Positions 13,952 through 50,703 of a stretch of 64,000 nt of DNA are shown here, piece by piece; the stretch's first letter is position 1, and the number at the start of each line of letters is the position of its first letter. Source of the DNA: Candidatus Kerfeldbacteria bacterium (GTDB lineage Bacteria > Patescibacteriota > Patescibacteriia > SBBC01 > CAIJZX01); contig CAIJZX010000028.1 of assembly GCA_903825245.1 (NCBI GenBank), positions 1,106 to 65,105 on the forward strand, written 5' to 3'. The position numbers and the translations under genes are program-made. The notes under the pieces were generated by a model. That model was not told where the DNA came from. It saw nothing but the letters and a program-made list of their open reading frames with translations, and searched no databases.

Positions 13952-14103
13952 CGGGTTCAGCCATGGAAGAAGTACCCCCCTTTCTTACTCGACATCGAAA
14001 TCGCCACCACCGACCTTCATCCCAGGCTCGACAAGCTCCTTATGGATATAAACCGGATCAATACGAATGCACCGTGGCGCTTTTGGATCGTGGCCATGTC
14101 CTC

Positions 14104-14222
14104 AGACCCCGACCCACATGCCTCAAATCGCCCTCTAGAAAAATCGTCAGAAAACCCTTATAATGCTTGTGTGAGTGTGGTACCTAACCCATGTGTCCCG
14201 CCAATAGAACTAAGTATCGGAC
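14104..14222 (+). repeat. promoter-bearing repeat, copy A
   Basis: gaccccgacccacatgcctcaaatcgccctctagaaaaatcgtcagaaaacccttataatgcttgtgtgagtgtggtacctaac... is near-identical to copy B (15914-16032). It embeds TAGAAA-N17-TATAAT (14136-14164). Confidence 0.6.
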
Positions 14223-14308
14223 AAATCACTTTCCTATGAGCATGAAGCAACCCGGGTGCCTTGTCCCCATCGCATTATAAAACGAATAATGAAGCTTTCG
14301 GATATCAG

Positions 14309-14953
14309 ATGATTATGATGATTATCTTTTCCTACAACATTGACAAGGATATAGAGAATATTATTAATGGAACACATGCGATCAACAGTAAAAAACCAAC
14401 AAAGTTTCAGCTTTCATTTAGCGACAACTACGGTAACAACTTTGAACCAGAAAAAGTAAAAACATACATCCAACAACAAGATAAGATAAATAATTTTGAT
14501 GCGAACAAAGAAACTGTCACCATGGAAGCAAAGTGGAAAAATGCCGAGTCTATTTTTATCGAGCGTGCGGAAAAAATATTCAGTCTTACTTACCCATCAC
14601 CGATAACTATATATTTGACCCACAATGAGCGCTGTACTTACAACATTGAAAAAAACTATTTTTTTGTCAAAATCGGATCGGAATTTTCAAACAACGCAAT
14701 CATGCATGAACTGTTACATTTTTATACGTGGCAAGCCTTTGGCAAAAAACTATTGGAAGAAGGAGTTGCAAAGTCAACATATAATGACGTCAAAGAATCT
14801 CTGACGGAACTTCTCAATCTTGAGTTTTCTGACCTTATGAGTGGAAAACCAGATAGTGGATATCCGCAGCATCAGGGGATGAGACGAATAATCCACGATA
14901 CATGGCTACCGCAAAAAGATCTTTTTTCCATAGTTCAAAAATTGATCTCATAG
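14309..14953 (+). CDS. YgjP/DUF45-like HExxH zincin (putative metal-dependent hydrolase)
   Basis: AT-rich ORF. IMHELLHFYTW is an HExxH motif, preceded by THNERCTY; this resembles the YgjP/WLM/SprT-like layout. First in-frame ATG is at 14309; the ORF track used TTG at 14261. Confidence 0.4.
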   Translation: MIMMIIFSYNIDKDIENIINGTHAINSKKPTKFQLSFSDNYGNNFEPEKVKTYIQQQDKINNFDANKETVTMEAKWKNAESIFIERAEKIFSLTYPSPITIYLTHNERCTYNIEKNYFFVKIGSEFSNNAIMHELLHFYTWQAFGKKLLEEGVAKSTYNDVKESLTELLNLEFSDLMSGKPDSGYPQHQGMRRIIHDTWLPQKDLFSIVQKLIS

Positions 14954-15054
14954 GTATTGGCGATGTAGTTGCAGGCACAAAACAAATTTATAGAAATAAT
15001 CTTCGAGGGATCGTCTTCTACGTCTCAGCTACCGACCTACTCTCCTTAACATCC

Positions 15055-15148
15055 TCCCTAGGGCGAACCTCATAAAACCCTTATAATGCTTACGCGGGTA
15101 GGATACCTAACTCGAGTGTCTCGCCAAGAGAACTTAGTATCGGGTGAC
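15055..15148 (+). repeat. promoter-bearing repeat, copy C (diverged)
   Basis: cataaaacccttataatgcttacgcgggtaggatacctaactcgagtgtctcgccaagagaacttagtatcgg aligns with copies A and B (TATAAT at 15082-15087; conserved ACCTAAC...GCCAA...TTAGTATCG). Confidence 0.5.
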
Positions 15149-15205
15149 CCATATGCCTAGAATCAAAGTCAAAATGTGGGAGGCACAAATAGGCAGAATT
15201 TGACT

Positions 15206-15856
15206 ATGCAAGTAGCCCAACTCCACAAAAAATTCGATGCTCTACAGAAAACATTCGGCCACGGTGAACTAAATCCGATATACGGCGCTGGATGTGTACA
15301 ACATCCAAGGTTAATGTTGGTATTTATGAATCCAACTGGAAAGAATGTTGCATCAAATACCAATTGGTCTGGACTTCGTGCCCCGTGGCTCGGAACAAAA
15401 AACATCTGGAAACTTTTACACGAGATAAAAGTTGTGTCAGAAGAAAGTTTTTCTGCAACCCAGACAAAAAAGTCAAACGAGTGGACACCCTTGTTTTGTT
15501 CTAATTTGTATAAGGAAATTGATTCGCACGAGGTGTACATTACAAACTTAGCCAAATGTACTCAATTGGACGCACGACCATTATCAAATTTGGTCTTCCA
15601 AAAATATCTAGAGTTATTCAAACAGGAAACACTCCTGATCCATCCAAAGAAGATAATTACCTTTGGCAACCAAGTAAGTTCGATTATTGTTGGAGAAAAT
15701 ATCTCAGTGGGAAAGTATGCTGGTAATCGGCATGAAGATGTGAAAATTGGGAGCAAGATTTTCCCAGTTTATCCGACGTGGTATCCAGTTGGGCAGGGCA
15801 TGAGAAACCTCCCATTAGCTGCGAAACGAATTAAGAAAGTTCTCTCCACCAAATAA
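15206..15856 (+). CDS. uracil-DNA glycosylase superfamily protein (family-4-like layout, divergent motif A)
   Basis: EVYITNLAKCTQ matches UDG motif EVYITNxVKCRP. LLIHPKKIITFGNQV and KIFPVYPTWYP correspond to the family-4 UDG C-terminal motifs. Motif A is FMNPTG instead of GEAPG. Confidence 0.55.
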   Translation: MQVAQLHKKFDALQKTFGHGELNPIYGAGCVQHPRLMLVFMNPTGKNVASNTNWSGLRAPWLGTKNIWKLLHEIKVVSEESFSATQTKKSNEWTPLFCSNLYKEIDSHEVYITNLAKCTQLDARPLSNLVFQKYLELFKQETLLIHPKKIITFGNQVSSIIVGENISVGKYAGNRHEDVKIGSKIFPVYPTWYPVGQGMRNLPLAAKRIKKVLSTK

Positions 15857-15913
15857 TCTAAAAAGGGTACCGAACAATTGAGACATCCTTAAGAAGTGCC
15901 TCATTTTGGTTTT

Positions 15914-16032
15914 AGACCCCGACCCACATGCCTCAAATCGCCCCCTAGAAAAATCGTCAGAAAACCCTTATAATGCTTGTGTGAGTGTGGTACCTAACTC
16001 GAATGTCCCGCCAATAAAATTTAGTATCGCGC
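15914..16032 (+). repeat. promoter-bearing repeat, copy B
   Basis: Near-identical to copy A over ~95 bp (TAGAAA 15946-15951, TATAAT 15969-15974), then diverges. It is preceded by the tail motif gagacatccttaagaagtgcctca that is shared with copy D. Confidence 0.6.
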
Positions 16033-18387: not shown

Positions 18388-18852
18388 ATGAAACTACGCA
18401 ACCACGCCGTCCCGGCGGTGTACCTCGTGATGCGAAAGGATAACAAGATTCTCTTTATGCGCCGGCAAGGCAGCGGTTTTTATGACGGTTGGTATTCGCT
18501 TCCGGCCGGCCACGTTGAAGCCGGTGAATTGCCAAAGGTGGGATTAGCGCGAGAAATGGAAGAAGAACTGGGGATAGGTATCGACGTGAACGCGCTCCGG
18601 CTCGTACATACGCTGTACCGGACGAAGAGCGATGAATCCGGCGATCGGGTGGACATGTTTTTTGACGTCCCGTCGTGGCAGGGCGAGCCAACGATTATGG
18701 AGCCGCACAAGTGTGATGATTTGCAGTGGTGCTCGATGCAAGAATTACCGGACAAAGTGATGCCGCACGTACGGCGAATATTGGAGGCCATCGATCGAGG
18801 CGAGACGTTCTCCGAGTTCGATTTGCCGACAATGTTGTCGTTTCCGAAATAA
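18388..18852 (+). CDS. Nudix hydrolase
   Basis: Nudix box GHVEAGELPKVGLAREMEEELGI. Confidence 0.8.
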   Translation: MKLRNHAVPAVYLVMRKDNKILFMRRQGSGFYDGWYSLPAGHVEAGELPKVGLAREMEEELGIGIDVNALRLVHTLYRTKSDESGDRVDMFFDVPSWQGEPTIMEPHKCDDLQWCSMQELPDKVMPHVRRILEAIDRGETFSEFDLPTMLSFPK

Positions 18853-18887
18853 TTCGCTTATTTAATTGTTTGTGGTAGGCTAGAACC

Positions 18888-19358
18888 ATGGCACACCTTC
18901 ACGACAAAATAGATTTCACGACCGAAGTCTTCATTGTTTTTCAGGGCAAAGTATTGTTGCGGAAGCACGATAAATACAAGATTTGGCTGAGTGTGGGTGG
19001 GCATATTGAACTTGATGAAGACCCGATACAGGCCGCACTGCGTGAAGTGAAAGAAGAAGTTGGGCTTGATGTTCAACTCTTTGGTCAACCGATCAGTGTC
19101 AGCAATGAAGGAGAAAACGGCTATCACGAGCTACTCCCGCCGATGTTTATGAACCGACACCATATTTCTGATACGCATGATCATATAACACTGACGTATT
19201 TTGCCAAAGCGACAACTAGTACTATTCGAAATCAAGAAGACGAGCATAGCGACGAGCTGAGATGGTTTACTGCGGAAGAACTTTCAGATTCGAAGTTTGG
19301 CATTCGGGATAGTGTTCAGAAATACGCATTGGCCGCCTTACAAACAATTCAAGGATAA
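18888..19358 (+). CDS. Nudix hydrolase
   Basis: Nudix box GGHIELDEDPIQAALREVKEEVGL. Confidence 0.75.
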   Translation: MAHLHDKIDFTTEVFIVFQGKVLLRKHDKYKIWLSVGGHIELDEDPIQAALREVKEEVGLDVQLFGQPISVSNEGENGYHELLPPMFMNRHHISDTHDHITLTYFAKATTSTIRNQEDEHSDELRWFTAEELSDSKFGIRDSVQKYALAALQTIQG

Positions 19359-19361
19359 ACC

Positions 19362-19910
19362 ATGTCAGAAGAAATGATCGACGTGCTCGATACACAGGGG
19401 GAAAAAACCGGACAAATATTGGAATTAAAAGAAGTCCATCGGCAAGGACTTTGGCATCGTACGGCGCATATTTGGGTTGTGACCTCAAAAGGTAATATAC
19501 TTTTTCAACAGCGCTCGCCGATCCTTGATGTCTACCCTAACTGTTGGGATATTTCCGCGTCCGGCCACATTCGAACTGGTCAAACGAGCCTTGAAGGGGC
19601 TATAGCAGAAACACAAGAAGAAATCGGATTATCCTTAAAACCCAACTCGTTAGAATTTCTGACTACACTGCAGCATGAAAGCGAACATAATCAAGGCACA
19701 AACATTAATAGAGAATTTCAGGATGTGTATTTGGTAACACAAGACGTGTCATTGAATGAATTAACAATACTCAATACCGAGGTCAGCAATCTGCAATTTA
19801 TACATTGGTCGAAATTACGTCGACTAGTTGACAATCATGACCAGGGGTTTGCCCCACGTGGTCAAGAATACCAACTACTATTCTCAATATTGCAGCAACG
19901 TTATCCATAA
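19362..19910 (+). CDS. Nudix hydrolase (IDI-like clade)
   Basis: Nudix box SGHIRTGQTSLEGAIAETQEEIGL. The N-terminal LWHRTAHIWV...LFQQRS...YPNCWD resembles the isopentenyl-diphosphate-isomerase-like Nudix subfamily. Confidence 0.7.
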   Translation: MSEEMIDVLDTQGEKTGQILELKEVHRQGLWHRTAHIWVVTSKGNILFQQRSPILDVYPNCWDISASGHIRTGQTSLEGAIAETQEEIGLSLKPNSLEFLTTLQHESEHNQGTNINREFQDVYLVTQDVSLNELTILNTEVSNLQFIHWSKLRRLVDNHDQGFAPRGQEYQLLFSILQQRYP

Positions 19911-29959: not shown

Positions 29960-30385
29960 ATGAAGAAGATTGTCATATCATCGCTTGTGGTTCTCGCGTT
30001 CGTGGCGTACGTCTTGCGTAGTCGTTTTGGCGGCGATCAGACAGCGACGCCAACCTCAAACGCAGCAGCAACGAATGTCGTCCTTGGTACGCCGCCGGTG
30101 ACCTACAAAGATGGCACGTATACGGGATCAGTGGCTGATGCGTTTTATGGCAATATCCAGGTAAAAGCTATTATTACTGGAGCGAAAATTACTGACGTTC
30201 AATTCTTGCAATATCCGAGTGATCGTAGTAATTCGGTGCGTATTAATACTGTAGCCATGCCACTGCTACGACAAGAGGCGCTGCAGGTGCAGACGGCCAA
30301 TGTCCAAACCATCACCGGCGCGACCGCAAGTAGCGGAGCATTCGTTCAGTCGTTGCAGTCCGCACTCAGCCAGGCACAAGTGTAA
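29960..30385 (+). CDS. extracytoplasmic FMN-binding domain protein (flavinylation substrate)
   Basis: N-terminal signal anchor. FMN_bind pattern DGTYTG...GNIQVKAIITGAKITDV...TITGATASSGAF, with the [S/T]GA[S/T] flavinylation motif TGAT. Confidence 0.65.
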   Translation: MKKIVISSLVVLAFVAYVLRSRFGGDQTATPTSNAAATNVVLGTPPVTYKDGTYTGSVADAFYGNIQVKAIITGAKITDVQFLQYPSDRSNSVRINTVAMPLLRQEALQVQTANVQTITGATASSGAFVQSLQSALSQAQV

Positions 30386-30397
30386 TACAAATTTCAC

Positions 30398-31144
30398 ATG
30401 AAAGAATCACGATCGATGATGGGTATGCCGATCACGATTGAAGGTGTCGACAACAATGCTTGTTTTTCCGACATCGATCAGGCGTTTGCCTACTTTGACT
30501 ATGTTGATCATACGTTCAGCACCTACAAACCGCAAAGCGAAATTTCTTGTATCAATCGCGGTGAACTGAAGTTGGAAGATGCGGGTGATGATATGCAAAC
30601 GATTTTTCGTTTAGCCGAGCAGACGAAACAAGCAACACATGGTTTCTTTGATATCCACCATGGTGATAGTGTTGATCCGTCGGGGATTGTCAAAGGTTGG
30701 GCAATTGAGCAAGTATCGCAACTATTGCAACGGCTGGAATGGAAAAACTTCACGGTTGAAGCGGGTGGTGATATTGCCGTCGTTGGCCACTTCAGCGGGA
30801 CGACGCCGTGGAAAGTTGGTGTTCGTCATCCATTCGAAATCGAGAAAATTGTTAAAGTACTGTCAATTTCCAATCTCGGTGTCGCAACGTCGGGTACATA
30901 TCTGCGTGGACATCATATTTATAATCCACGAAATGGCGACGTTGTCGTCGCTGACATAGCGAGTTTAACCGTCATTGGCCCGAATATTTATGAGGCCGAT
31001 CGTTTTGCCACCGCTGCATTTGCCATGGGCAGTCAGGGGATTCAGTTTATCGAAAACCTAGCGGGATTCGAAGGATACATGATTGATTCGCACGGAACTG
31101 CTACACTGACCACCGGGTTTGACCACTATTGCCTACCGTCATGA
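30398..31144 (+). CDS. apbE: FAD:protein FMN transferase (ApbE/Ftp)
   Basis: GMPITIEG...HTFSTYKPQSEISCINRG...GFFDI...VKGWA...AGGDIAV...GVATSGTY is the ApbE family pattern. Confidence 0.8.
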   Translation: MKESRSMMGMPITIEGVDNNACFSDIDQAFAYFDYVDHTFSTYKPQSEISCINRGELKLEDAGDDMQTIFRLAEQTKQATHGFFDIHHGDSVDPSGIVKGWAIEQVSQLLQRLEWKNFTVEAGGDIAVVGHFSGTTPWKVGVRHPFEIEKIVKVLSISNLGVATSGTYLRGHHIYNPRNGDVVVADIASLTVIGPNIYEADRFATAAFAMGSQGIQFIENLAGFEGYMIDSHGTATLTTGFDHYCLPS

Positions 31145-32661
31145 TGAAATTTGTCGACAACATTCTAAATCGGACGACGATGTATCGTTTGTTGCTCTAT
31201 GTTTTAGGTGCATACCTGGCGATTGGAATGATGTTGAGTTTTGCCGGAAAGTTGCCGTATAACGGTTGGATGGTTCTCCTTTCGACCACGATAGTACTTT
31301 TCGGTTGTTGGTTTTCGAATCTCGTTATGGCCTGGGCGTATGATGCACCGCGACATAATCCATCAGCCTACATCACCGCACTTATATTAGCGCTCATTAT
31401 TTCTCCAATCCGCACGGTCGGCGACCTACCACTGTATTTCTGGGCGCCGATTTTAGCTATGGCTGGAAAATATATCCTGGCATCAGGAAAGCAGCACCTA
31501 TTCAATCCCGCGGCTTTCGCGGTAGCGCTGACAGCGATCGCCATCAATGGTTCGGCGACGTGGTGGGTGGGAAATGTCTGGATGTTGCCGGCGGTGGCGA
31601 TTGGCGGATTTCTCATTGTTCGTAAGATTCGACGCTGGGATGTGGTTGGCGCTTTCCTTGGTATGGCGGCGATTTCCGTCACCGTGTTAGCACTATTCCG
31701 GCACACGCCGATTCTTAACACTTGGAAAGTATTGATTCTTGATGCCCCACTCGTTTTTTTTGCGACCGTCATGTTGACCGAACCCTTCACCATGCCACCG
31801 ACACATCGTTATCGCTTGTTCTATGGCGCTACGATCGGATTGCTCTTTGCACCGCAGTTGCATATTGGTTCCTTGTACTCAACACCAGAATTAGCCTTGG
31901 TCATAGGTAATTTTATATTTTGGTTAATTGCCAGTCGAGATCGTTATGTCTTGAAATTGATTCAACGCGTTCAGTTGTCGGATACGACGTATGATTTTAT
32001 TTTTTCTTCTGATCGACCGATACGCTTTCGGGCTGGACAATACTTAGAGTGGGCGTTGCCGCACGCTAGCAGTGATCAACGCGGCTCACGTCGATATTTC
32101 ACGATTGCTTCCGCGCCGACAGAATCGACTATCCGGATGGGCGTTAAATTCTATCCCCAATCGAGTAGCTATAAACAGACGCTGCGTAAACTTCATCCCG
32201 GGCAAACGATTGTGGCCGGGCAACTCGATGGAGATTTCACACTGCCAAAAGATGTTCATCAGAAGCTCGTGTTTCTCGCGGGTGGTATTGGTGTCACGCC
32301 ATTTCGAAGTATGATTCAGCAACTCATCAACACACAGGAACAACGGGACGTCGTTTTGTTGTTTGCTAATCAACGACCATCAGATATCGTCTACCAAGAT
32401 ATTTTTGATCAAGCTAGCCAGCACAATGGAGTACGCGTCGTACACGTTATTGCCGACGAAGCATCACTACCGCCAATGTGGGGCGGTGAGCGCGGATATG
32501 TCACGGCCGAAATGATCCAACGCCAGGTCCCGGATTATGCGGAACGACTTTTTTACATTAGCGGTCCGCAGGGAATGGTTCAGGCGTATAAAAAAACACT
32601 CCGATCGCTCGGTGTACCGAATCAGCACATAAAGACCGATTATTTCCCCGGATTTTCTTGA
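31141..32661 (+). CDS. membrane oxidoreductase: NqrB/RnfD-like polytopic domain fused to NqrF/FNR-like FAD and NAD(P)-binding domain
   Basis: N-terminal ~270 aa with ~8 TM helices, containing GKQHLFNPAAFAVALTAIAINGSATWW (RnfD/NqrB-like FNPA plus a GSAT site). The C-terminal RFRAGQYLEWALP...RRYFTIASAP...FLAGGIGVTPFRSMI is a ferredoxin-NADP-reductase-type fold. ATG overlaps the apbE stop (ATGA). Confidence 0.6.
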   Translation: MMKFVDNILNRTTMYRLLLYVLGAYLAIGMMLSFAGKLPYNGWMVLLSTTIVLFGCWFSNLVMAWAYDAPRHNPSAYITALILALIISPIRTVGDLPLYFWAPILAMAGKYILASGKQHLFNPAAFAVALTAIAINGSATWWVGNVWMLPAVAIGGFLIVRKIRRWDVVGAFLGMAAISVTVLALFRHTPILNTWKVLILDAPLVFFATVMLTEPFTMPPTHRYRLFYGATIGLLFAPQLHIGSLYSTPELALVIGNFIFWLIASRDRYVLKLIQRVQLSDTTYDFIFSSDRPIRFRAGQYLEWALPHASSDQRGSRRYFTIASAPTESTIRMGVKFYPQSSSYKQTLRKLHPGQTIVAGQLDGDFTLPKDVHQKLVFLAGGIGVTPFRSMIQQLINTQEQRDVVLLFANQRPSDIVYQDIFDQASQHNGVRVVHVIADEASLPPMWGGERGYVTAEMIQRQVPDYAERLFYISGPQGMVQAYKKTLRSLGVPNQHIKTDYFPGFS

Positions 32662-32680: not shown

Positions 32681-34135
32681 GTGCGACTGATACCACCAAA
32701 ATTCAATCCAAAAACCGTTGTGGTGCTTGCCACAATAGTGTTTATTGTATTCTTTTCCGCCTCGAATTGGTTTCGGCAGGTAAATCTTGTGACCTCGCAG
32801 TTTGACATGGGCAACATGGATCAAGTACTTTGGCACAGTCTCCACGGACAATGGTTCATGATGGCCGATCCGATTGCTGGAGCTCTAGAATCCAGAGCCG
32901 CTATTCACACCGATTTTTTATTGCTGGCCTATATGCCGTTCTATGCACTCTGGCCAGATCCGCGGACACCATTACTCTTGCAAGTCCTGGCGGTAGCTAG
33001 CGGCGTGATACCGTTGTGGTGGTTAGCCAGAAAAAAACTATCACCGCGCCTGAGTGCAATGGTGGCCGTAACATACCTGGCATTTCCGGCACTGGAGTGG
33101 TCGATTATCTTTGATGTTCACGCTGTCGTCTTGGTCACACCACTGTTCTTGTGGGCGTGGTGGGCGGCATCAGAAAAACGATGGTGGCTGTACGGATTGA
33201 CGGTTGGATTAGCGCTGCTCGGCAAAGAAGAAGTTGGTTTGGTGGTGGCAGCCATGGGCGTGTATTGGTTGTGGCGTCGCGGGTATCGCACGATGGGTAT
33301 TGCCAGTGTTGTGGCGGGATTAAGTTGGACGATTGCTATGGTGGAATGGGTAATTCCACATGCTCGCCAATTACCGGGGCACTTCGCACTCAATTATTTT
33401 TCCGATTACGGTTCGTCATACGAAGCGATAATAAAGGGTATTATTCAACATCCGCTAAAAGTTCTTGGCGACGTGTTTGGCAAAACGCAGCTTGAATTGA
33501 TGTTGATGATGCTTGCTCCGGTTGGTTTTGTGGCGCTACTGGGTTGGCCGATCTTGTTGGTGGCGCTACCCGATCTCGGTATTAATCTGCTGAGCAATAA
33601 TGCCAATCAACACACCATCTTTTTTCAATACATGGCGGTCACGACGCCATTTATTTTTTTAGCTGCAATTGATGGTTTAACGAAAGTCGTACGGTGGCAT
33701 GATCGTGGACGAAAAACCCTGTCTGGTTATCGACGGCGTACCGCGATTCTTGGTTTGGCGGCTGGTGTGGCCGTAGCTACCGTGTGGTGGCTTAGTCCAT
33801 TGCCGTTTTTTCACCATGGCGGTGATGCGCTGACGCCGTTCAAAGCATCGCCCTATCTGCAAGACGTGAAAACCGTTCAACGGCAACTGCTCGCTACCGA
33901 TAAAGTCGCGGTGACGAATAATCTTGGACCGCAATTCTCCCGTCGGGAATATATCTGGGCATTTCCGAATTCATTGGATCGGGCCGATGCGGTGATCGTC
34001 CTAACCGGAGGCGCATACGACGTCTTACCGAAAGAGCAAATCATCGCCAAAGTTGCACAGCTGGCGAACGACAGTCGTTTTACGCTCGTTTTGCACGATC
34101 AAGACTTTTGGTATTTCCGACGAGTAGCAAAATAA
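32681..34135 (+). CDS. DUF2079 family polytopic membrane protein
   Basis: 484 aa with many TM helices. The N-terminal DMGNMDQVLWHSLHGQWFMMADPIAG matches the DUF2079 (COG3463) pattern. GTG start. Confidence 0.5.
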   Translation: MRLIPPKFNPKTVVVLATIVFIVFFSASNWFRQVNLVTSQFDMGNMDQVLWHSLHGQWFMMADPIAGALESRAAIHTDFLLLAYMPFYALWPDPRTPLLLQVLAVASGVIPLWWLARKKLSPRLSAMVAVTYLAFPALEWSIIFDVHAVVLVTPLFLWAWWAASEKRWWLYGLTVGLALLGKEEVGLVVAAMGVYWLWRRGYRTMGIASVVAGLSWTIAMVEWVIPHARQLPGHFALNYFSDYGSSYEAIIKGIIQHPLKVLGDVFGKTQLELMLMMLAPVGFVALLGWPILLVALPDLGINLLSNNANQHTIFFQYMAVTTPFIFLAAIDGLTKVVRWHDRGRKTLSGYRRRTAILGLAAGVAVATVWWLSPLPFFHHGGDALTPFKASPYLQDVKTVQRQLLATDKVAVTNNLGPQFSRREYIWAFPNSLDRADAVIVLTGGAYDVLPKEQIIAKVAQLANDSRFTLVLHDQDFWYFRRVAK

Positions 34136-34152: not shown

Positions 34153-36187
34153 GTGTACATAGCCGCGTGGTATACTGTCTCCATGGTACGAAAAACCATT
34201 ATTATTACGATCGGGATACTCCTTGGACTGGCCTCATGGCGGCTTTTCCCATTATTAACATCGGCGCAAAGCGTTATTAGTATTATCGGTTGCGATCAGA
34301 TCACAAGCCCAGGTACGTATCGTATTGCCAATAATCTGACCACGGTAGGGCCCATTTGTCTTGATATTAAAGGCAACGATATTACGATCGATGGAAACGG
34401 GAAAACCATAACCATGCAAAACGGCGGATCGGCATTGAAAGTAATGATGAACGATCCGAGCGTACCAGCGCAGCGATGGCATAACATTACTGTTAGTAAT
34501 TTCGTTTCCAAGCGGCGATTTTCAAGCGTATGCTGATGTCCATAATATTAGCTTGGATAATCTCACCATAACTGGTGTGAGTGTGCTTGGTTCGCATTTT
34601 GTCAGTATCACAAATTCCACAATTAACGGTGATGTTGGTATTTCTCTCTTGAATCAGGTGGATTCAACAAACATTACCTTTACCGGAAACACGGTAACCG
34701 GTAGTAGCAACCGACTAGCAGTATTCGCTGGTGATGCACACACGATAGGGAATTGCGATACGACCGGTTATACGATTAACAACAATACATTCACAAACAC
34801 GATTCCTGTGGTCGGAGATAATGCGGTCAATGTTTTCCTTTCCTGCACAGAAAATGGTTCGTTCAGTAATAACACGGTGAACTCACCGGGGCAGGCAACC
34901 GGTCTGCTTATCCGCGACGGCTATTCGCATAATACCATGTCCGGAAACACCATCCACGTTAACCAGGCGGTCAATGACTCCAGAGGGGCAATTGCTTTTG
35001 TTTCCGGATCAACGACCGTCGGACCGGCTACCTTCAATACCTTGAGTGGGAACACTGTCATAGCCGATAATGGTAAAGCTTTATTCATGTATGATGCGAC
35101 AGGGACCTCGAACACGGGTACTCTTTTTCAAAACAACCTTTTTGTCTCGAACAGCGGAGCGGGAAGCCAGGAATTCTACACCACCACCGATGCCAGTAAT
35201 CCGAATGTTTTTTCACATAACACTTTTATTGAACATGGGACTGGATATGCCTTTGGTTTTCCTGATGATGGAATGGTCGATGGAATGGAAAACACTGTTC
35301 TTCATGACAATATTTTTGTTGCTGCATCCGGTCCGGTGATTGGCGGAGATACCGCGCCCCGCGCAGGATTCGTTGCCAATCATAATCTCTACTACAATCG
35401 TTCTGGGGCGGCGAGTTTTACTGGTATTGGCAATTTCAATGCTTGGAAAACAGCTACCGGAGATACGTCCTCACTTGAAGCCAATCCGTTGTTCGTTGAT
35501 TACACGAACGGTAATTACCATCTCCAAGCGACCTCGCCGGCGGTTGGTGCTGGCACGGGTGGATCGGATATTGGGGCATATGGAGCGAGCGGATCGTGTA
35601 CCGAATCCTGGTCATGTGGTTCTTGGTCAACCTGCACGAACAACACGCAATCGCGCACCTGCGCGGACGCTAATAGTTGTAATACCTTCGTCAACCAACC
35701 GGCTTTGACCCAAAGCTGTGACAGCACCGCGCCGACGGTGTCTCTTACCGCTCCGACGAACGGCACAACCGTTTCAGCCACGGTTTCCGTAACAGCGACG
35801 GCCAGCGATAACGTCGGCGTCGTCGGCGTACAATTTAAGCTGGATGGCGTAAATCTCGGCAGTGAAGATGCGTCATCGCCCTACAGTGTTAGCTGGAATA
35901 CGACCGGAGCAACCAATGCATCACACACGCTGACTGCAGTAGCGCGGGATGCGGCCGGACTTACGACAACAGCGACGACAGTCATCGTGACCGTCAACAA
36001 CGTCGTTGCTTGTACCGAGTCGTGGTCCTATAGTGCCTGGTCAACATGTGTCAATGGAACACAAACCCGAACCGCGACAGACGCCAACCATTGCGGTACG
36101 ACGGTTAATCGTCAACCGCTGACGCAAAGTTGCAGTTCGCCGGATTTGACGCCGCCGTCTGCGGTTGATAATCTGCAGGTGAGGTAA
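34153..36187 (+). CDS. secreted right-handed beta-helix (pectate-lyase-like) repeat protein with Ig-like and Cys-rich modules; interrupted by a +1 frameshift near 34505-34512
   Basis: Two consecutive ORFs (34153..34536 in frame 1; 34553..36187 in frame 2) both encode parallel beta-helix repeats (NITVSNF / HNISLDNLTITG...NSTINGDVGI...). Frame 2 is open back to 34451, so a single-nt indel joins them. The C-terminus has two copies of the module C(T)ESWSxxxWSTCxNxTQxRTxxDANxC. Confidence 0.5.
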
Positions 36188-38358: not shown

Positions 38359-38379
38359 TTAGTGTAGTATATACACCAT
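38359..38379 (+). promoter_or_regulatory. candidate NrtR operator 1
   Basis: TTAGTGTA-gtata-TACACCAT, overlapping the nrtR start codon. Half-sites are identical to the site at 39087. Confidence 0.45.
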
Positions 38380-39070
38380 GAAGCACTCAAGCCCTGTCCC
38401 GCATGAACTCCGATTCGCCGTTCTAGCCGCTGATGCGGTTATGTTCACGGTCTTTGATGGCCGTTTACACGTTCGGCTGATTCCAGTGCACCTACCGCCG
38501 TACTTCAGCCATCTTGCTGGTATCCCCGGTGGTTTACTGGCGCCAACGGAAACGGCCGATCAAGCTGCAGTGCGGCACGCCACGACCAAGGGCGGCGTAC
38601 TTCACGAACATTTATATCTGGAACAATTGTATACCTTCAGCGCTATCAACCGTGATCCTCGTAATCGTGTGGTGGCAGTGGCCTATCTCGGCCTTGTGCC
38701 GTGGGAAGTGTTAACGAAAACCGCAGAACGGGATACCGCCGCGGCGACCTGGGTTCGTATCGACAAGTTACCGAAACTTGCCTATGACCATCGAGAAATT
38801 ATTCGCGTCGGCCTCGAACGTTTGCGGTCGCGGGTAACCTATACCACAATTATCAAACAGTTGATGCCGAAAGAGTTCACACTGACCGACCTTGAAGTAA
38901 TGTATGAAACCGTATTGGGTCAAGATATTGATAAACGGAACTTCCGCAAAAAAGTATTGAAGACCGGCGTCCTGCAAGTGTTACCTCGTGAACGGACAGG
39001 GGAGCAACACCGCCCGGCAAAGCTCTATCGGTTTCTCAATCGTGACATCGAACCAATCGCGATCATCTAA
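38378..39070 (+). CDS. nrtR: NrtR-family Nudix-related transcriptional regulator
   Basis: N-terminal Nudix fold with a degenerate Nudix box (GIPGGLLAPTETADQAAVRHATTKGGV, catalytic Glu residues lost). The C-terminal winged-helix (TLTDLEVMYETVLGQDIDKRNFRKKVL...RPAKLYRF) is typical of NrtR. Confidence 0.75.
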   Translation: MKHSSPVPHELRFAVLAADAVMFTVFDGRLHVRLIPVHLPPYFSHLAGIPGGLLAPTETADQAAVRHATTKGGVLHEHLYLEQLYTFSAINRDPRNRVVAVAYLGLVPWEVLTKTAERDTAAATWVRIDKLPKLAYDHREIIRVGLERLRSRVTYTTIIKQLMPKEFTLTDLEVMYETVLGQDIDKRNFRKKVLKTGVLQVLPRERTGEQHRPAKLYRFLNRDIEPIAII

Positions 39071-39086
39071 ATTTTTTTATGTTTAG

Positions 39087-39107
39087 TTAGTGTAAGATTT
39101 ACACCAT
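39087..39107 (+). promoter_or_regulatory. candidate NrtR operator 2
   Basis: TTAGTGTA-agatt-TACACCAT, ~70 nt upstream of nadM-Nudix. Confidence 0.45.
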
Positions 39108-39175
39108 TCAAACCAAGCTGGGTCGTCACCGCAACGATACACCTTGGCTGGAGTCAAGGACTTGTCCTTTACAAC

Positions 39176-40120
39176 ATGGAGAATATCATGGACTCGAAGA
39201 ATATCGGTGTCATCGTGGCACGGTTTCAAGTGCCGGAGTTGCACGACGGCCATCGGTACCTGATTGATCACGTTCGTGAGCGCCATGCCCGCGTCCTGAT
39301 CGTTCTCGGGTATTCCGAAGCCCACCTGACCACGCGGAATCCGCTCGATGTAGCAACGCGATTGATGATGGTACAGGCAGCGTATCCCGACGTACGGGTG
39401 GCCAGTCTGCCCGATATGCGCTGCGATCAACTATGGTCGAAGACTCTGGATCATGTAATCAACCAGGAATTCCCCGGATGCTCGGCAGTGCTCTACGGAT
39501 CGCGATCGAGTTTTCTCAGCCAGTATCACGGCCGACATCAATGCCAGGAAATACCGCCGCTGCCGTGTCCGGCAGCAACGGAGGTGCGGGAAACAATTAC
39601 CGCTCCGCTGGATTCGATGGAGTTTCGCCAGGGCGTCATCTATGCCGCTCGTCAAAAGTACCCGACGTCATACCAAACGGTCGATGTCGCGGTGCTGAAC
39701 GGCGATCGAACGAAGGTGCTGATGGCGATGAAGGTCGACGACAACAATCGTTGGCGGTTCATCGGTGGCTTTGTTGATCCGGCTGACGCTTCGCTCGAAG
39801 CAGCGGCCAAGCGGGAAGTAACGGAAGAAACGTCGATGATCGAGACGGATGATTATATCTATCTCGGTTCCTCGCGGGTGTTCGATTACCGTTACCCGCG
39901 CGGCGACGTCGACGCGATCATGACGGCGTTGTTTGCTGCCACGTACATATTTGGTGCGCCCACTCCCAAGGACGACATTGTCCGTTTGGAATGGAGACCA
40001 ATCGATGAGCTGGAGAACACGCTGGTCCCGGAACATCAAGCCTTGGGCGCACAGCTGCGCGCCTATCTCGCCACTGTCAATCACGGAAGGAGCGATCACC
40101 ATGCGACGAAATCGTTCTAA
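39176..40120 (+). CDS. nadM: bifunctional NMN adenylyltransferase / Nudix (ADP-ribose pyrophosphatase), NadM-Nudix
   Basis: N-terminus GVIVARFQVPELHDGH is the archaeal-type NadM (H/T)xGH motif. The C-terminal Nudix box is GGFVDPADASLEAAAKREVTEETSM. Confidence 0.8.
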   Translation: MENIMDSKNIGVIVARFQVPELHDGHRYLIDHVRERHARVLIVLGYSEAHLTTRNPLDVATRLMMVQAAYPDVRVASLPDMRCDQLWSKTLDHVINQEFPGCSAVLYGSRSSFLSQYHGRHQCQEIPPLPCPAATEVRETITAPLDSMEFRQGVIYAARQKYPTSYQTVDVAVLNGDRTKVLMAMKVDDNNRWRFIGGFVDPADASLEAAAKREVTEETSMIETDDYIYLGSSRVFDYRYPRGDVDAIMTALFAATYIFGAPTPKDDIVRLEWRPIDELENTLVPEHQALGAQLRAYLATVNHGRSDHHATKSF

Positions 40121-41501
40121 CATCATCGAGATGTCGGACAGCTACAAGATTTCGCATTGGCGGCAGTACCCGCCGGGTACGACGCGTGTCTTCTCGTTTC
40201 TCGAGAGCCGTGGCGGTGCCTTCTCGCACGTGACATTGTTCGGTCTGCAGTACATCATCAAGCAGTATCTCGAAGGCGTCGTCGTGACCAAGGAGATGAT
40301 CGACGAGGCGAGCGAGGATTTCGCACTCCACTTCGGTAATGCAACATTGTTCAACGAAGCCGGCTGGCGGCACATCCTCAATGTTCACGGCGGACGTTTG
40401 CCGGTGCGCATTTCGGCGATTCCCGAAGGCACACCGGTGCCGATTTCGAACGTCATGCTGACGATCGAAAACACCGATCCTGCCGTGCCATGGCTGACGA
40501 GCTACCTCGAGACGCTGCTGTGCGAAGTTTGGTACCCGACGACTGTCTGTACGCAAAGCCGGGTCATGCGGCAAGTGATTCTTGAGGCGCTTGAGAAGTC
40601 CGGTGATCCGGCGGGCGTGGATTTCAAGCTCCACGACTTCGGTTTTCGCGGCAGTACATCAGTCGAATCCTCGGGAATTGGCGGCGCTGCGCATCTGGTC
40701 AATTTCAACGGAACGGACACGATGTCAGCGCTGAAGGTGGCTCGCGAATTTTACGGCGAACGCATGGCCGGGTTTTCCATCCCGGCCGCCGAACACAGCA
40801 CGATCACGTCGTGGGGTCGTGAGCATGAAGGCGACGCCTATGCCAACATGTTGCGGTCGTTTCCGACCGGGCCGGTGGCGGTTGTCAGCGATAGCTACGA
40901 CATCTTCCACGCCTGCCGCCAACTATGGGGCGCCGAACTGAAGGTCGAAGTGATTGAGCGCGACGGTGTGCTCATCGTTCGTCCGGACAGCGGCGATCCG
41001 CCGACGGTTGTCCTGCGCGTGCTCGACATTCTCGGCGAAGCTTTCGGCACAACGATCAACAGCAAAGGCTACCGCCTGCTTCATCCCAAGGTGCGAGTCA
41101 TTCAGGGCGACGGTATCGACCTGGCGATGATTCAGAACATCTTGGGGGCGATCATAGCGGCTGGTTGGTCGGCAGACAATATCGCCTTCGGTTCAGGCGG
41201 CGGATTGCTCCAGAAAGTTGATCGCGACACCTGTAAGTTCGCATTCAAGTGCAGTGCCATCGAGATCAATGGTGCCTGGCACGACGTGTCCAAGGATCCG
41301 ATCACCGATCACGGCAAAAAGTCGAAGGCCGGCCGGCTGAAGCTCGTCCGTCGTGGCGACTCTGTGGCAACCGTGACGGAAGAACAGTCTGTCGAAGTCA
41401 ATCTCCTCGTGCCGGTATTCGAGAACGGTCAACTACTCGTCGACCAGTCATTCTCAGACATCCGCTCTCGTGCGCGCGCTGTCGCTCCGATTCTCGTTTG
41501 A
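40101..41501 (+). CDS. nadV: nicotinamide phosphoribosyltransferase (NadV/NAMPT)
   Basis: N-terminus MRRNRSNIIEMSDSYKISHW (NadV xTDSYKxSH motif), full-length ~466 aa. Its start overlaps the 3' end of nadM by 20 nt. Confidence 0.85.
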   Translation: MRRNRSNIIEMSDSYKISHWRQYPPGTTRVFSFLESRGGAFSHVTLFGLQYIIKQYLEGVVVTKEMIDEASEDFALHFGNATLFNEAGWRHILNVHGGRLPVRISAIPEGTPVPISNVMLTIENTDPAVPWLTSYLETLLCEVWYPTTVCTQSRVMRQVILEALEKSGDPAGVDFKLHDFGFRGSTSVESSGIGGAAHLVNFNGTDTMSALKVAREFYGERMAGFSIPAAEHSTITSWGREHEGDAYANMLRSFPTGPVAVVSDSYDIFHACRQLWGAELKVEVIERDGVLIVRPDSGDPPTVVLRVLDILGEAFGTTINSKGYRLLHPKVRVIQGDGIDLAMIQNILGAIIAAGWSADNIAFGSGGGLLQKVDRDTCKFAFKCSAIEINGAWHDVSKDPITDHGKKSKAGRLKLVRRGDSVATVTEEQSVEVNLLVPVFENGQLLVDQSFSDIRSRARAVAPILV

Positions 41502-48312: not shown

Positions 48313-50703
48313 ATGGGTTCCGTTACGGAAATAATACACATGAACGACACGACAACCAATACAAAGATTTCGCAACGAACGAGAGTCGTCGCCCTTGGTC
48401 TCATCGCCGCAGGCACTATTTTTGCTGCCGCGGCAATTATCTTCGGTTTCTCCAAGTCGTCATCAAACACCAGCACCACGGAAATTCGCCTCAGTGGTGT
48501 CGTTCGCGACGTGGTTATCGACACCATCGATCGACCGTCGGGTGACCAATATTACCTGGAGACGCCCGATGGACAGCACATTCTCCTTTCTCTGCCTACG
48601 ACCCTGCCAGCCCCCGGTAGTGGCGACAACATCACCGTTACCGGTAGCCGACATGGCGACACGTTCTCCGTCACGTCCGTCATGCCAACGAACAACACAA
48701 CCGCGGAAGTTCACGCAGCGTCCTTGGGTTCAGTCAGTGCACTATCGGCCACGCCGACCGAGTACCATGTTCTCGTCGTGATGGGTTATTATTCCGGGCA
48801 AGCCGTTCCAACGACGCCGACTCAGAGCGATGTACAGACGGTCATGTTTGGTTCTTCGCCGAGTGTGGCTGACTTCTATCAGGACAATTCGTTCGGCCAT
48901 GTGCACGTGACGGGAATCGTCACGCCGTGGATTCCCGTGACCGGCTCGGAGTCGGGGAACATTAATACTTCGGCGAGCATGGCTCTCCAGGCGGCAAAAA
49001 CCGCGGATCCGACGCTCGACTTAAAACAGTTCCAACACGTCGTTTTCATCTCACCCTATACGAGTAATACACTTCCGGACGCCTATTCGGTCGTCGGACC
49101 GCTATCGGTATCGTCTCCGGACGGCCCGCTCACTATCTCGGTAGAGATGGTGCGCTCGACCATCAATCAACTTCCGCGGACGACACTCCTGCTACCATAT
49201 ATCCTCATCCACGAGTTCGGCCATGGACTCGGCCTCGGTCACGCCGGATTACTCGGTTGCACCGACGTCCCGATTGCAACGACATGCCGGGTCATGGAAT
49301 ACGCGGATCGGTTCGATGTCATGGGTGGTGCCTACGAGCTTTCGTACGCCGAGGATTTGAATGCAGCACACCTCGACAAACTCGGCTGGCTCGATTCCTC
49401 CAACCTGCAGCTCGTCGATGTGAATCCCGGACAGGGCGGCACGTATACCCTCGAGCCGATCGAGAATCGGACGACCGGTCTTAAGGCACTCAAGATACCG
49501 CGTGGTAACGACGATTACTTCTACGTCGAATACCGTCAGCCGATCGGGTACGATACAGCTATCGACGATCCGCTACTGTTCACCGGTGCACTTCTGCATG
49601 TGTTGAATTTTGGCAGTTATCCTAACTCGCTTGGTTCCGATACGCTGGTTATTGATCCGAACCAACATCCTTCGGCTTTCAAGAATGACAGCCTGAAAGT
49701 TGGGTCATCGCTTACCGATCCGATTACCGGTGTCGTTATCACGACTACCGCGCAGGATGCGAACGGCGTTACCGTCCGCGTCGACCCGGCCACGAAACCG
49801 ATTGTCACTGACCTTCCGCCTACCGTTACGATCACCGCCCCGCAAAGCGGTTCGACCGTCACTTCCCCCGTCACCTTTTCGGCAACTATCGACGATGACC
49901 ACGGCGTCTCGACATCGCGATTTTACGTCGATTGTCCGGCGACAAGCTCCCTCGCGTCGTGCTCGTATACGTACCAAGGGTATCCGTATCAGATGAGCAA
50001 GGTGCTCGCGACCGGCGCGCACTCTATTCAAGTTACCGCCGACGACTACACCGGTCATCGGACTTCAAGCCCGCGCGTCGTATTCACCGTGGGAACTGCG
50101 CCAGCTACGGTCCCGGCTACTACTGTCACACCGCCGACTGTTCCCCCGCCGACAACCACTATCGCCCCGCCGATTGTTGCGGTGTCCGGTCTCGTCAATG
50201 GGAAGACGGCTGTCGGCCAGAAGACCACGCTCGTCGTCAAGGGCACAACAAGTACGATCTCTTCGGCAGTATTGAAGGTCGATGGAAAAAATGTCTATAA
50301 GCGGACGACTGCTCCATTCTCCTTCTATGTCGATTCGCCCGCCTATCCAAATGGTGCCCATACCGTCAGCCTTGTTGTCACCCAGACGAATGGTGTTATC
50401 ACGACAAAGAACGTTACGGTAGTCACCAGCAACTCGTTATCGGTGTCGATTAGTGCACCCGCCAAGAACGCGAAGGTGAAAAAGTCTGTGATCATTAGCC
50501 CGACGGTCCGCGGTGGCTATGGCACGAAAAGCATCGCCTATACGCTCGATGGAAAAAAACTCGCCACGACAACGAAAACACCATTTAGTTATTCATGGAA
50601 TACAACCAAAACGAAAATCGGCACGCATACGATCACGGTCAAGGTCACGGACAAGAAGGGCAAGACGGCATCCGCATCCGTCAAGGTTAAAGTGACGCGT
50701 TAA
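48313..50703 (+). CDS. secreted zinc metalloprotease (metzincin-type HExxHxxGxxH) with multiple C-terminal Ig-like domains
   Basis: N-terminal TM/signal. Catalytic ILIHEFGHGLGLGHAG. The C-terminal ~300 aa have repeated beta-sandwich modules (TVTITAPQSGSTVTSPVTFSAT..., SVSISAPAKNAKVKKSVIISPTV...). Confidence 0.6.
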   Translation: MGSVTEIIHMNDTTTNTKISQRTRVVALGLIAAGTIFAAAAIIFGFSKSSSNTSTTEIRLSGVVRDVVIDTIDRPSGDQYYLETPDGQHILLSLPTTLPAPGSGDNITVTGSRHGDTFSVTSVMPTNNTTAEVHAASLGSVSALSATPTEYHVLVVMGYYSGQAVPTTPTQSDVQTVMFGSSPSVADFYQDNSFGHVHVTGIVTPWIPVTGSESGNINTSASMALQAAKTADPTLDLKQFQHVVFISPYTSNTLPDAYSVVGPLSVSSPDGPLTISVEMVRSTINQLPRTTLLLPYILIHEFGHGLGLGHAGLLGCTDVPIATTCRVMEYADRFDVMGGAYELSYAEDLNAAHLDKLGWLDSSNLQLVDVNPGQGGTYTLEPIENRTTGLKALKIPRGNDDYFYVEYRQPIGYDTAIDDPLLFTGALLHVLNFGSYPNSLGSDTLVIDPNQHPSAFKNDSLKVGSSLTDPITGVVITTTAQDANGVTVRVDPATKPIVTDLPPTVTITAPQSGSTVTSPVTFSATIDDDHGVSTSRFYVDCPATSSLASCSYTYQGYPYQMSKVLATGAHSIQVTADDYTGHRTSSPRVVFTVGTAPATVPATTVTPPTVPPPTTTIAPPIVAVSGLVNGKTAVGQKTTLVVKGTTSTISSAVLKVDGKNVYKRTTAPFSFYVDSPAYPNGAHTVSLVVTQTNGVITTKNVTVVTSNSLSVSISAPAKNAKVKKSVIISPTVRGGYGTKSIAYTLDGKKLATTTKTPFSYSWNTTKTKIGTHTITVKVTDKKGKTASASVKVKVTR

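Follow-up and report, generated by a model that had tools for sequence, protein, structure and literature searches.

How, and to what use, would a bacterium of the candidate phyla radiation (CPR) carry electrons from cytoplasmic NAD(P)H to a flavoprotein outside the cell? CPR bacteria lack respiratory chains, and the locus described here raises this question directly. The original prediction, made by reading the DNA alone, had proposed that an FMN-binding-domain protein with a TGAT motif, an ApbE flavin transferase and a polytopic membrane protein fused to a reductase sit in one operon and form a minimal, unusual electron transfer chain. We examined this locus within its window, i.e., the whole 64 kb stretch of DNA that was analysed, which derives from a Kerfeldbacteria-like member of the CPR, and the features discussed below are the following.

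29960..30385, + strand: FMN_bind protein gene, 141 aa, NqrC/RnfG-like FMN_bind subunit
30314..30325, + strand: TGAT flavinylation motif, residues 119-122 of the FMN_bind protein (read directly)
30398..31144, + strand: ApbE-type FAD:protein FMN transferase gene, 248 aa
31141-32661, + strand: fusion gene, RnfD/NqrB-fold membrane domain plus FNR-type FAD/NAD(P)H domain, 506 aa
31141..31144, + strand: ATGA overlap, the fusion start lying on the ApbE stop codon (31142-31144; read directly)
31141..31950, + strand: RnfD/NqrB-fold polytopic membrane domain of the fusion, about residues 1-268 (PF03116, hhalign, AF2, Foldseek)
31549..31560, + strand: 'GSAT', residues 137-140 of the fusion, in a predicted outer loop just before an invariant WW
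31951..32661, + strand: FNR-type FAD-binding and NAD(P)H-binding domain, about residues 271-506 (PF00970, PF00175)
32681..34135, + strand: DUF2079 membrane protein gene (Pfam PF09852, E 2.4e-66)

All three predicted genes are present and co-directional, and the overlap of the apbE and reductase genes was read as predicted. The open reading frame of the fusion as listed spans 31129-32661, and its likely start, judged from the sequence, is the ATG at 31141; the resulting overlap suggests translational coupling of apbE and the fusion gene. The DUF2079 gene follows on the same strand 19 bp 3' of the fusion gene, a terminator scan between the two gave no convincing terminator, and the fusion gene also adjoins DUF2079 in two related loci (L046 and L048). 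The DUF2079 gene may be co-transcribed with the three-gene operon, its membership of the system not being established. We noticed that the FMN_bind and ApbE reading frames lie in the same frame in the window, separated by a TAA and 12 nt. Stop-codon readthrough or an FMN_bind-ApbE fusion was considered and rejected, as the frames differ in L001 and L002, showing that the shared frame is due to chance.

Méheust et al. 2021 (PMC8238504) define the NQR/RNF-like flavinylation system by an N-terminal PF03116 and a C-terminal PF00175 domain in one protein, encoded at most five genes from an ApbE or FMN_bind gene. In the window, PF03116 and PF00175 occur in one product, and FMN_bind and ApbE are encoded by the two genes immediately upstream. 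We conclude that the three-gene locus is an ordinary member of this published system, with an architecture that is already known. The system has been reported mainly from Actinobacteria and the CPR (PMC8238504, PMC10979944), and the fusion, far from being unusual, has thousands of homologues in a database search. An FMN_bind homologue lay directly beside the fusion gene in 39 of the 45 loci that we fetched, and an ApbE in 32. The identical co-directional operon was found in CPR loci (L001, L002, L047 and L048) and in Chloroflexota (L049 and L050), while in most of the other CPR loci fetched FMN_bind and ApbE are divergently paired, the motif is GGAS and the ApbE measures about 290 aa. Overall, the published figure of 127 clusters makes the NQR/RNF-like system look much rarer in the CPR than it is, although the window locus itself adds no new architecture. 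Genes connected with iron occur in some of these neighbourhoods: FTR1 lies near L048, a SUF operon lies beside L050, and VIT1 is present in six published NQR/RNF-like clusters.

The C-terminus of the fusion protein is an FNR-type FAD/NAD(P) reductase, as had been read from the sequence. Both PF00970 (22 bits, cut-off 21.1) and PF00175 (72.5 bits) score above their cut-offs, and the domain matches cytochrome b5 reductase and the FAD domain of NqrF in the PDB. The motifs RRYFTIAS (nt 32089-32112) and GGIGVTPF (nt 32281-32304) are both invariant in the family. Of NADH and NADPH, the former is the more likely donor, since the cytochrome-b5-reductase-like 'ANQxxxD' position is filled by an acidic residue.

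The membrane domain is more divergent at the sequence level: plain phmmer against the PDB returned no match, and a profile search reached RnfD with no better than E 0.008. Nevertheless, PF03116 (NQR2_RnfD_RnfE) matched at 37.4 bits (cut-off 27.7), and hhalign aligned the domain to E. coli RsxD with a probability of 96% (E 2.9e-9). The AF2 models reached a pLDDT of 92 for the full-length fusion and 93 for the membrane domain, which was modelled separately because the Foldseek search with the full-length protein was swamped by FNR matches. The membrane-domain model gave TM-scores of 0.69-0.75 to RnfD and 0.59-0.65 to NqrB and nothing else comparable, the matches below these being urea transporters. 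On a positive-inside reading, the basic loops RKIRRW, THRYR and SRDRY would lie with the FNR domain on one membrane face. The predicted likeness of the N-terminus to RnfD/NqrB holds for the fold and for FNPAA (residues 121-125), which corresponds by homology to FNPAM in RnfD.

The likeness fails at GSAT. In RsxD and NqrB, T187 and T236, respectively, are covalently flavinylated in an S-(G/Q)-A-T periplasmic loop, whereas in the fusion this loop is deleted: residues about 134-213 of RsxD, including GISQAT187, have no counterpart in the hhalign alignment, a missing segment of ~80 residues. We therefore rejected GSAT as the canonical RnfD/NqrB flavinylation site, given that T140 aligns to G219 of RsxD and that CPR homologues vary at this column. 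The segment also fits D-x-x-[S/T]-G-A-[S/T] poorly, and conservation of A-[S/T]-WW is limited to the subfamily and does not extend across the CPR. As gap placement in the alignment is ambiguous, there is a small chance that GSAT is a vestigial flavinylation site. Loss of the canonical NqrB/RnfD flavinylation Thr is likewise reported for the published system (PMC10979944).

A flavinylation site is readily recognised in the partner subunit. The FMN_bind protein matches PF04205 (29.8 bits, cut-off 22 bits, E 9.8e-7), gives weak RnfG matches in NCBIfam, and aligns with a solved FMN-binding domain (PDB 8p2a, E 6.8e-12), its TGAT falling on the SGAT of that structure. Thr122 is the predicted site of FMN attachment. 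The ApbE target motif is D-x-x-[S/T]-G-A-[S/T], and a D-to-A change has been reported to have only a minor effect; the window reads Q-T-I-T-G-A-T122, with the T-G-A-T core present and the Asp at -6 replaced by Gln. Across the partner FMN_bind proteins of related loci, the predicted flavinylation Ser/Thr is strictly conserved, within (T/S)GAT or GGAS. The protein begins with a hydrophobic anchor (residues 1-19), which a linker rich in Thr and Pro joins to the FMN-binding domain (residues 53-139). The hydrophobic segment, preceded by MKK and with a maximum KD19 hydrophobicity of 2.05 at residue 1, looks like an uncleaved anchor.

On which side of the membrane this domain lies is less evident. 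The charges around the anchor in the window are ambiguous for topology (N-flank +2, C-flank +2/-1). In the Chloroflexota homologues of this operon the N-flanks are strongly basic (RKRR...RK), and because of these a positive-inside reading predicts the FMN domain to be outside (N-in/C-out). The type-B FMN_bind proteins of the CPR begin with 'MP(Y)IIAV...' and have no basic N-region, with K/R totalling 4 in the N-flanks vs 40 in the C-flanks (n = 46). The linkers that follow the anchor are acidic and rich in Thr, Pro and Ser, as in surface proteins.

The ApbE identification is secure, with 146 bits to PF02424 and matches to solved ApbEs in the PDB at E about 1e-13. The HHI.NP and EAD..T segments align to these structures; for instance, S. 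enterica ApbE (3pnd) has 'VSHVIDP' opposite 'GHHIYNP' and 'EADGWDT' opposite 'EADRFAT', and we take these segments to be the catalytic His and metal-binding ones. A signal peptide, a lipobox and a transmembrane segment were looked for in the window ApbE and none was found (maximum KD19 hydrophobicity 1.27). The conserved MGM/LGT motif begins after only seven residues, and an N-terminal extension is impossible because a TAA stop lies four codons upstream of the ATG. The same holds across the family, as neither an export signal nor an anchor was found in any of the 32 related loci with an ApbE or in the 120 closest database homologues (241-260 aa). The signal-less ApbE is the single odd feature of the locus.

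This finding bears on where the flavin is attached. For ApbEs acting on secreted targets, a periplasmic location has been reported to be essential, and known ApbEs without a signal serve cytosolic enzymes. The presumption that this ApbE acts outside the cytosol is accordingly not secure, either for the window protein or for its cluster-associated relatives. Neither Méheust et al. 2021 (PMC8238504) nor Huang et al. 2024 (PMC10979944) addresses, in the text that can be searched, the matter of a signal-less ApbE in the NQR/RNF-like system. Because the ApbE lacks an export signal, we hypothesize, as the most economical reading, that an outward-facing domain would be flavinylated while still in the cytoplasm, with translocation of this C-terminal domain to follow. 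For the CPR and Chloroflexota version in general we advance only a tentative proposal, namely that its ApbE might be truly cytoplasmic, with the partner receiving FMN on its short C-terminal motif ahead of the passage of that domain through the membrane, or with the flavinylated subunit working on the cytoplasmic face.

Taken as a whole, the locus probably encodes a transmembrane electron exporter of the NQR/RNF-like kind, made of two subunits and accompanied by a flavin transferase of its own. On the cytoplasmic side, the FNR-type FAD domain of the fusion would oxidise NAD(P)H, and one or more non-covalent flavins, which we infer for the RnfD/NqrB-fold domain, would carry the electrons across the membrane to FMN held covalently by Thr122 of the membrane-anchored FMN_bind subunit on the outer face. 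ApbE would install this FMN, using FAD as its source. The reduced Thr122-FMN would then pass electrons to an extracytosolic acceptor, for which Fe(III), in the service of iron uptake, is the best-precedented guess. The original prediction of a minimal chain from NAD(P)H to an extracytosolic flavoprotein coincides with what has been proposed for such gene clusters in the literature (PMC8238504, PMC10979944), where the same order of NAD(P)H, flavin and extracytosolic FMN protein is given. For the Ktedonobacter complex, a published AlphaFold-multimer model of high confidence places the flavinylation site of the partner at the RnfD-like flavin pocket (PMC10979944). A search of the 64 kb window for partner quinone or haem genes, or another acceptor gene, found none. 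Respiratory-chain genes, which the original prediction took the organism to lack, were likewise not found, a result that covers the 64 kb only.

The same components could be arranged differently. All redox chemistry might take place on the cytoplasmic face, with the FMN_bind domain oriented N-out/C-in, flavinylated there by a cytosolic ApbE and serving as a tethered one-electron carrier from the FNR FAD to the RnfD-like domain or to a membrane or cytoplasmic acceptor, such that no extracytosolic flavoprotein would exist. The signal-less ApbEs throughout the family, the cytosolic targets of the characterised ones and the non-basic N-flanks of the 46 type-B proteins would all suit this arrangement, but it conflicts with the basic N-flanks of the Chloroflexota homologues, with the surface-protein character of the post-anchor linkers and with the published multimer model, which docks the partner on the outer face (PMC10979944), and it leaves a transmembrane RnfD-like domain without an obvious role. 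We consider it unlikely. Alternatively, the membrane domain might be a bis-haem ferric reductase of the NOX/FRE type fused to FNR, as the original prediction had itself envisaged. A polytopic N-terminus followed by a C-terminal FNR is indeed a similar layout, full-length Foldseek lists S. pneumoniae NOX (via the dehydrogenase domain), and PF08030 gives a weak match below its cut-off. The membrane-domain model, in contrast, folds as RnfD/NqrB and finds no ferric reductase even after the urea transporters, PF03116 and hhalign point the same way, and there is no bis-His helix pair: among the histidines of the domain, H119 alone is conserved family-wide, H241 being conserved within the subfamily. 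These tests of fold and histidine pattern rule out a ferric-reductase domain, to which we attach a very small probability.

NqrB itself has been proposed to form the ion path of Na+-NQR, and the exporter might be, or might also be, ion-motive, coupling electron flow to Na+ or H+ translocation and so giving a CPR cell that has no respiratory chain a membrane potential, or using one when run in reverse. The NqrB/RnfD fold, shared with subunits of the ion-translocating Nqr/Rnf complexes, argues for this, as does an F-type ATP synthase operon adjoining the fusion gene in 17 type-B Paceibacteria-type loci. However, UDG and Fpg neighbour the fusion gene about as often, and we therefore read the ATP synthase adjacency as a gene order that was inherited; in the window, ATP synthase genes are absent. 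None of the other NQR/RNF membrane subunits (A/E or D/E) was found among the reading frames scanned in the window, and the literature proposes a simple unidirectional flow of electrons. Ion-motive function is thus rather improbable.

The preferred exporter reading can be placed among known systems. With the NQR/RNF-like system (PMC8238504, PMC10979944) we see no essential difference: the same PF03116-PF00175 fusion is clustered with FMN_bind and ApbE in the same taxonomic home, the CPR and also Chloroflexota, and the window represents the co-directional FMN_bind-ApbE-fusion variant with the short, 248 aa ApbE, as in Chloroflexota. Na+-NQR and Rnf share the RnfD/NqrB fold, an ApbE-flavinylated NqrC/RnfG-type partner and an NqrF-like FAD/NADH domain, whereas the window has two of the six subunits, no NqrA/D/E or RnfA/B/C/E and no Fe-S domains. 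Among the open reading frames of at least 150 aa scanned in the 64 kb, and in the related operons, none encodes RnfA/B/C/E/G or NqrA/C/D/E/F as a separate complex gene. In the window system the electrons would presumably move outward in one direction only, as opposed to along a semicircular path, and probably without ion pumping. Flavin-based extracellular electron transfer of the Listeria type (Ndh2, EetA/B, PplA, FmnB) likewise passes electrons from cytosolic NADH to an ApbE-flavinylated, membrane-tethered extracytosolic FMN protein and on to external acceptors, in an organism not needing a classical respiratory chain. It does so through a type-II NADH dehydrogenase and quinone, where the window would have an RnfD-fold flavin wire, and its FmnB is a lipoprotein that is exported and receives FAD through a dedicated ECF exporter, whereas the window ApbE lacks an export signal. 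NOX/FRE proteins such as S. pneumoniae NOX resemble the fusion in combining a polytopic domain with a C-terminal FNR-type NAD(P)H/FAD domain and in sending electrons outward, although theirs is a six-helix bis-haem domain and the window domain lacks haem-ligand His. Finally, the cytosolic ApbE of Klebsiella pneumoniae also has no N-terminal lipoprotein signal, but its target is a soluble cytosolic fumarate reductase, whereas the only evident target in the window is membrane-anchored and predicted to face outward.

How an ApbE without an export signal serves an apparently outward-facing substrate is a testable gap. If a 'modify, then export' route is true, there would be no need to export FAD. 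A cytoplasmic ApbE, if true, would mean that the published, purely extracytosolic picture of flavinylation needs revising for the NQR/RNF-like family, and that surveys filtered by signal peptides give too low a count of flavin-based electron export in the CPR. For CPR bacteria, a very common flavin wire from NADH to the outside could be among the few means of getting rid of reducing equivalents, obtaining iron, or trading electrons with a host.

Three closely packed genes occupy 29960-32661 on the + strand, and the original prediction was right in every structural particular concerning them: an FMN_bind protein with a TGAT motif, an ApbE flavin transferase, and a membrane protein-reductase fusion whose gene overlaps apbE at ATGA.

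29960-30385, + strand: gene 1, FMN_bind protein of 141 aa, start MKKIVISSLVVLAFVAYVL, then a Thr/Pro-rich linker
30314-30325, + strand: TGAT of gene 1 (residues 119-122), aligned with SGAT of 8p2a
30398-31144, + strand: gene 2, ApbE of 248 aa (Pfam, 146 bits)
31141 (ATG, likely start; listed from TTG 31129) to 32661, + strand: gene 3, the fusion, 506-aa product from the ATG

The FMN_bind domain (PF04205) of gene 1 scores 29.8 bits in Pfam (cut-off 22), and residues 53-139 align with 8p2a, an FMN-binding domain of known structure (E = 6.8e-12). Gene 2 matches solved ApbEs at E ~1e-13, with its HHI.NP and EAD..T segments aligned. Started at ATG 31141, gene 3 overlaps the stop codon of apbE at ATGA and agrees with homologue starts; its product contains PF03116 (NQR2_RnfD_RnfE; 37.4 bits, cut-off 27.7), PF00970 and PF00175. 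The FMN_bind and ApbE ORFs share a reading frame in the window (30383-30400, a gap of TAA plus 12 nt). In L001 and L002, two related loci carrying fusion homologues, the two ORFs lie in different frames, so we regard the shared frame as coincidental and not as a sign of readthrough.

AF2 modelled the whole fusion at pLDDT 92 and pTM 0.87, and residues 1-270 alone at pLDDT 93 and pTM 0.91. A Foldseek search of the membrane-domain model against the PDB returned RnfD (TM-scores: 8rbq_D 0.75, 9eri_D 0.72, 8ahx_D 0.71, 7zc6_D 0.69) and NqrB (0.59-0.65), beyond which urea transporters appeared at far weaker scores, and a 39-homologue profile aligned to E. coli RsxD (hhalign, 96% probability, 229 columns). 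The membrane domain is RnfD/NqrB-like, as had been proposed for the N-terminus. The competing assignment considered at that time, a bis-haem ferric-reductase domain, is so improbable on fold and histidine pattern that we treat it as excluded: the same search gave no ferric-reductase fold, and H119 is the only membrane-domain His conserved family-wide, H241 being conserved just in the close subfamily. For the C-terminal half the matches are FNR-family proteins, among them cytochrome b5 reductase and the NqrF FAD domain, and its RRYFTIAS and GGIGVTPF motifs are invariant, in keeping with the predicted FNR-type FAD/NAD(P) reductase. Its LLFANQRPSD segment resembles one in cytochrome b5 reductase whose Asp favours NADH; a preference for NADH is tentative.

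The FNPAAF...GSAT pattern had also been read as RnfD/NqrB-like. Its first part holds, FNPAA being homologous to RsxD FNPAM, but GSAT does not: hhalign sets window INGSATW-WV opposite RsxD ILAGAGWQWV, with T140 opposite G219, and the fusion lacks RsxD residues ~134-213, the periplasmic insert bearing GISQAT187. The GSAT column is not conserved across diverse candidate phyla radiation (CPR) homologues; among the closest 119 sequences S138 is kept in 103, A139 in 118 and S/T140 in 105, and 79 of 140 representative clusters have A-[S/T]-WW at constant spacing from NPAA. A-I-N-G-S-A-T agrees with the ApbE motif D-x-x-[S/T]-G-A-[S/T] at the last two positions only. We conclude that the canonical RnfD/NqrB flavinylation site is lost in the fusion, as Huang et al. 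2024 (PMC10979944) reported for the NQR/RNF-like class. T140 falls in a predicted outer loop (residues 136-148), and its covalent flavinylation is doubtful.

The fusion had been called unusual, yet this architecture defines a published class. Méheust et al. 2021 (PMC8238504) named flavinylation gene clusters with a PF03116-PF00175 fusion, the same fusion as in the window operon, 'NQR/RNF-like systems' and proposed one-way electron flow from NAD(P)H to extracytosolic FMN, which is in essence the minimal chain originally predicted. In the AlphaFold-multimer model of the Ktedonobacter racemifer pair (Huang et al. 2024, PMC10979944), the NqrC/RnfG-like subunit docks on the NqrB/RnfD-like subunit, its flavinylation site adjoining the latter's non-covalent flavin pocket. 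The window operon is therefore an ordinary member of this class, which is known from genes and models rather than experiments.

Among genomes, the fusion has its best match (64%) in a Kerfeldbacteria MAG that shares the order M23 peptidase / FMN_bind / ApbE / fusion, and the window GroEL is 89-91% identical to GroELs labelled Patescibacteria or Candidatus Kerfeldbacteria. The fusion was recovered at 44 genome loci, each of them in a Patescibacteria-type MAG. At E <= 1e-5 the fusion matched >7,500 90%-identity clusters, some of which may match the FNR half only; with the membrane domain alone as query, 1,263 clusters of 50% identity were hit at E <= 1e-3, of which 292 reached E <= 1e-30, and the best 150 listed are mostly ~490-515 aa. 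By iterated profile searches of the 45 fetched loci, the fusion gene has a neighbouring FMN_bind homologue in 39 and a neighbouring ApbE in 32, and loci missing either neighbour were mostly contig ends. The co-directional layout FMN_bind -> ApbE -> fusion (window, L001, L002, L047, L048) comes with a short ApbE (237-248 aa) and a (T/S)GAT motif, whereas in the majority of the remaining CPR loci FMN_bind and ApbE form a divergent pair, ApbE measures ~290-305 aa and the motif is an invariant SRVGGAS. Chloroflexota share the co-directional operon with equal gene lengths (L049, a 3.7-Mb contig, and L050, GCA_016195815.1), and several named Chloroflexi are among the closest ApbE homologues (57-66% identity). 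Tandem FMN_bind paralogues (~145 and ~200 aa), both with GGAS, lie between ApbE and fusion in L006, L009, L012, L014, L016 and L019. At L045 (JGI contig, 979,532 bp), from a close relative, FMN_bind and ApbE are absent next to a fusion homologue just 53% identical to that of the window, while the contig's GroEL shares 91% identity with the window GroEL, indicating that divergence or exchange of the fusion is far more rapid than that of housekeeping genes.

Quinone, haem, cytochrome, Fe-S and other Rnf/Nqr genes were absent from a Pfam scan of ORFs of at least 150 aa that covered the majority of such ORFs in the window. The operon neighbours are a divergent M23 peptidase, an ABC transporter and a DUF2079 membrane protein, the last found next to the fusion at three loci of the subfamily.

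32681-34135 of the window: DUF2079 (PMT_2-like) membrane protein, 19 bp downstream of the fusion; recurs at L046:1880-3328 and L048:1342-2799

We know of no redox link for DUF2079. A gene for a VTT/DedA-domain protein likewise turns up at L045, L047 and L048. Proximity to iron genes gives indirect hints of an iron link: FTR1 permease lies near the L048 fusion locus, a SUF operon adjoins the L050 operon, and VIT1 occurs in six published NQR/RNF-like clusters (PMC8238504). In 17 divergent-type CPR loci (L005-L044; e.g. L005:8975-12864) the fusion is closely followed by an F-type ATP synthase operon; since UDG (16 loci) and Fpg (14 loci) are similarly common neighbours, this probably reflects conserved gene order, not a functional link.

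Elsewhere in the window, a 795-aa ORF (61520-63907, - strand) with G6PD_N, G6PD_C, NAD_binding_2 and 6PGD domains apparently fuses glucose-6-phosphate dehydrogenase with 6-phosphogluconate dehydrogenase and may supply NADPH; an ion-channel ORF (61102-61671) overlaps it at the 5' end. NUDIX hydrolase genes are unusually dense (18388-19910, 38378-41501, 51415-52032; three in tandem, one NrtR-type with a winged-helix domain, and two more) and adjoin a NAMPT/NAPRTase gene, which suggests an NAD salvage and regulation cluster. An ORF at 12694-13605 carries a 5-hmdU DNA kinase helical domain (HMUDK_hel, E = 1.2e-16), normally of a phage DNA-hypermodification enzyme, and adjoins the lowest-GC stretch (14001-16000, GC 0.406); the two may form an island of mobile or phage origin. 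Big_7 Ig-like domains are carried by two large predicted surface proteins, at 34553-36187, after a 127-aa ORF with a signal-like N-terminus, and at 48313-50703.

The operon has one misfit with the published picture, namely an ApbE without an export signal and a substrate that appears to face outward. The conserved MGM(P) that opens the catalytic domain comes after only seven residues, a TAA stop four codons upstream makes a longer form impossible, and the highest KD hydrophobicity over 19 residues is 1.27. Even as longest possible ORFs, all 32 related ApbEs likewise lack a signal: 7-11 residues precede the LGT motif in 27, 22 in one, and 43-72 without a hydrophobic segment in the remaining four. 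The best 120 database homologues are all 241-260 aa. ApbEs with secreted targets reportedly need to be periplasmic, and known ApbEs without a signal act on cytosolic enzymes. An outward orientation of the substrate is suggested by the strongly basic N-flanks ahead of the anchor in Chloroflexota FMN_bind homologues, the acidic, Thr/Pro-rich linkers after it, and the published complex model with its FMN_bind-type subunit outside (Huang et al. 2024, PMC10979944). We found no discussion of this conflict in the searchable text of PMC8238504 or PMC10979944. The 2021 survey (PMC8238504) calls CPR 'strikingly underrepresented' for extracytosolic flavinylation, which may partly be a product of its signal-peptide filter.

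Of three conceivable resolutions we favour the one in which the seven-residue motif near the C-terminus would be flavinylated in the cytoplasm ahead of translocation, seven residues being enough for a flavinylation motif according to a review; the other two are a cytoplasmic FMN_bind domain and an unrecognised export route. The best mechanism, which we consider reasonably probable, is that NAD(P)H would give electrons to the FAD of the fusion, which would pass them to flavin(s) in the RnfD-fold domain and on to FMN-Thr122 of the anchored partner, there reducing a putative external acceptor. A complex working at the cytoplasmic face seems unlikely, and ion coupling by the complex slightly more so. 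The interest of the operon lies mainly in the puzzle of its signal-less ApbE and in how very common the system is among CPR bacteria.
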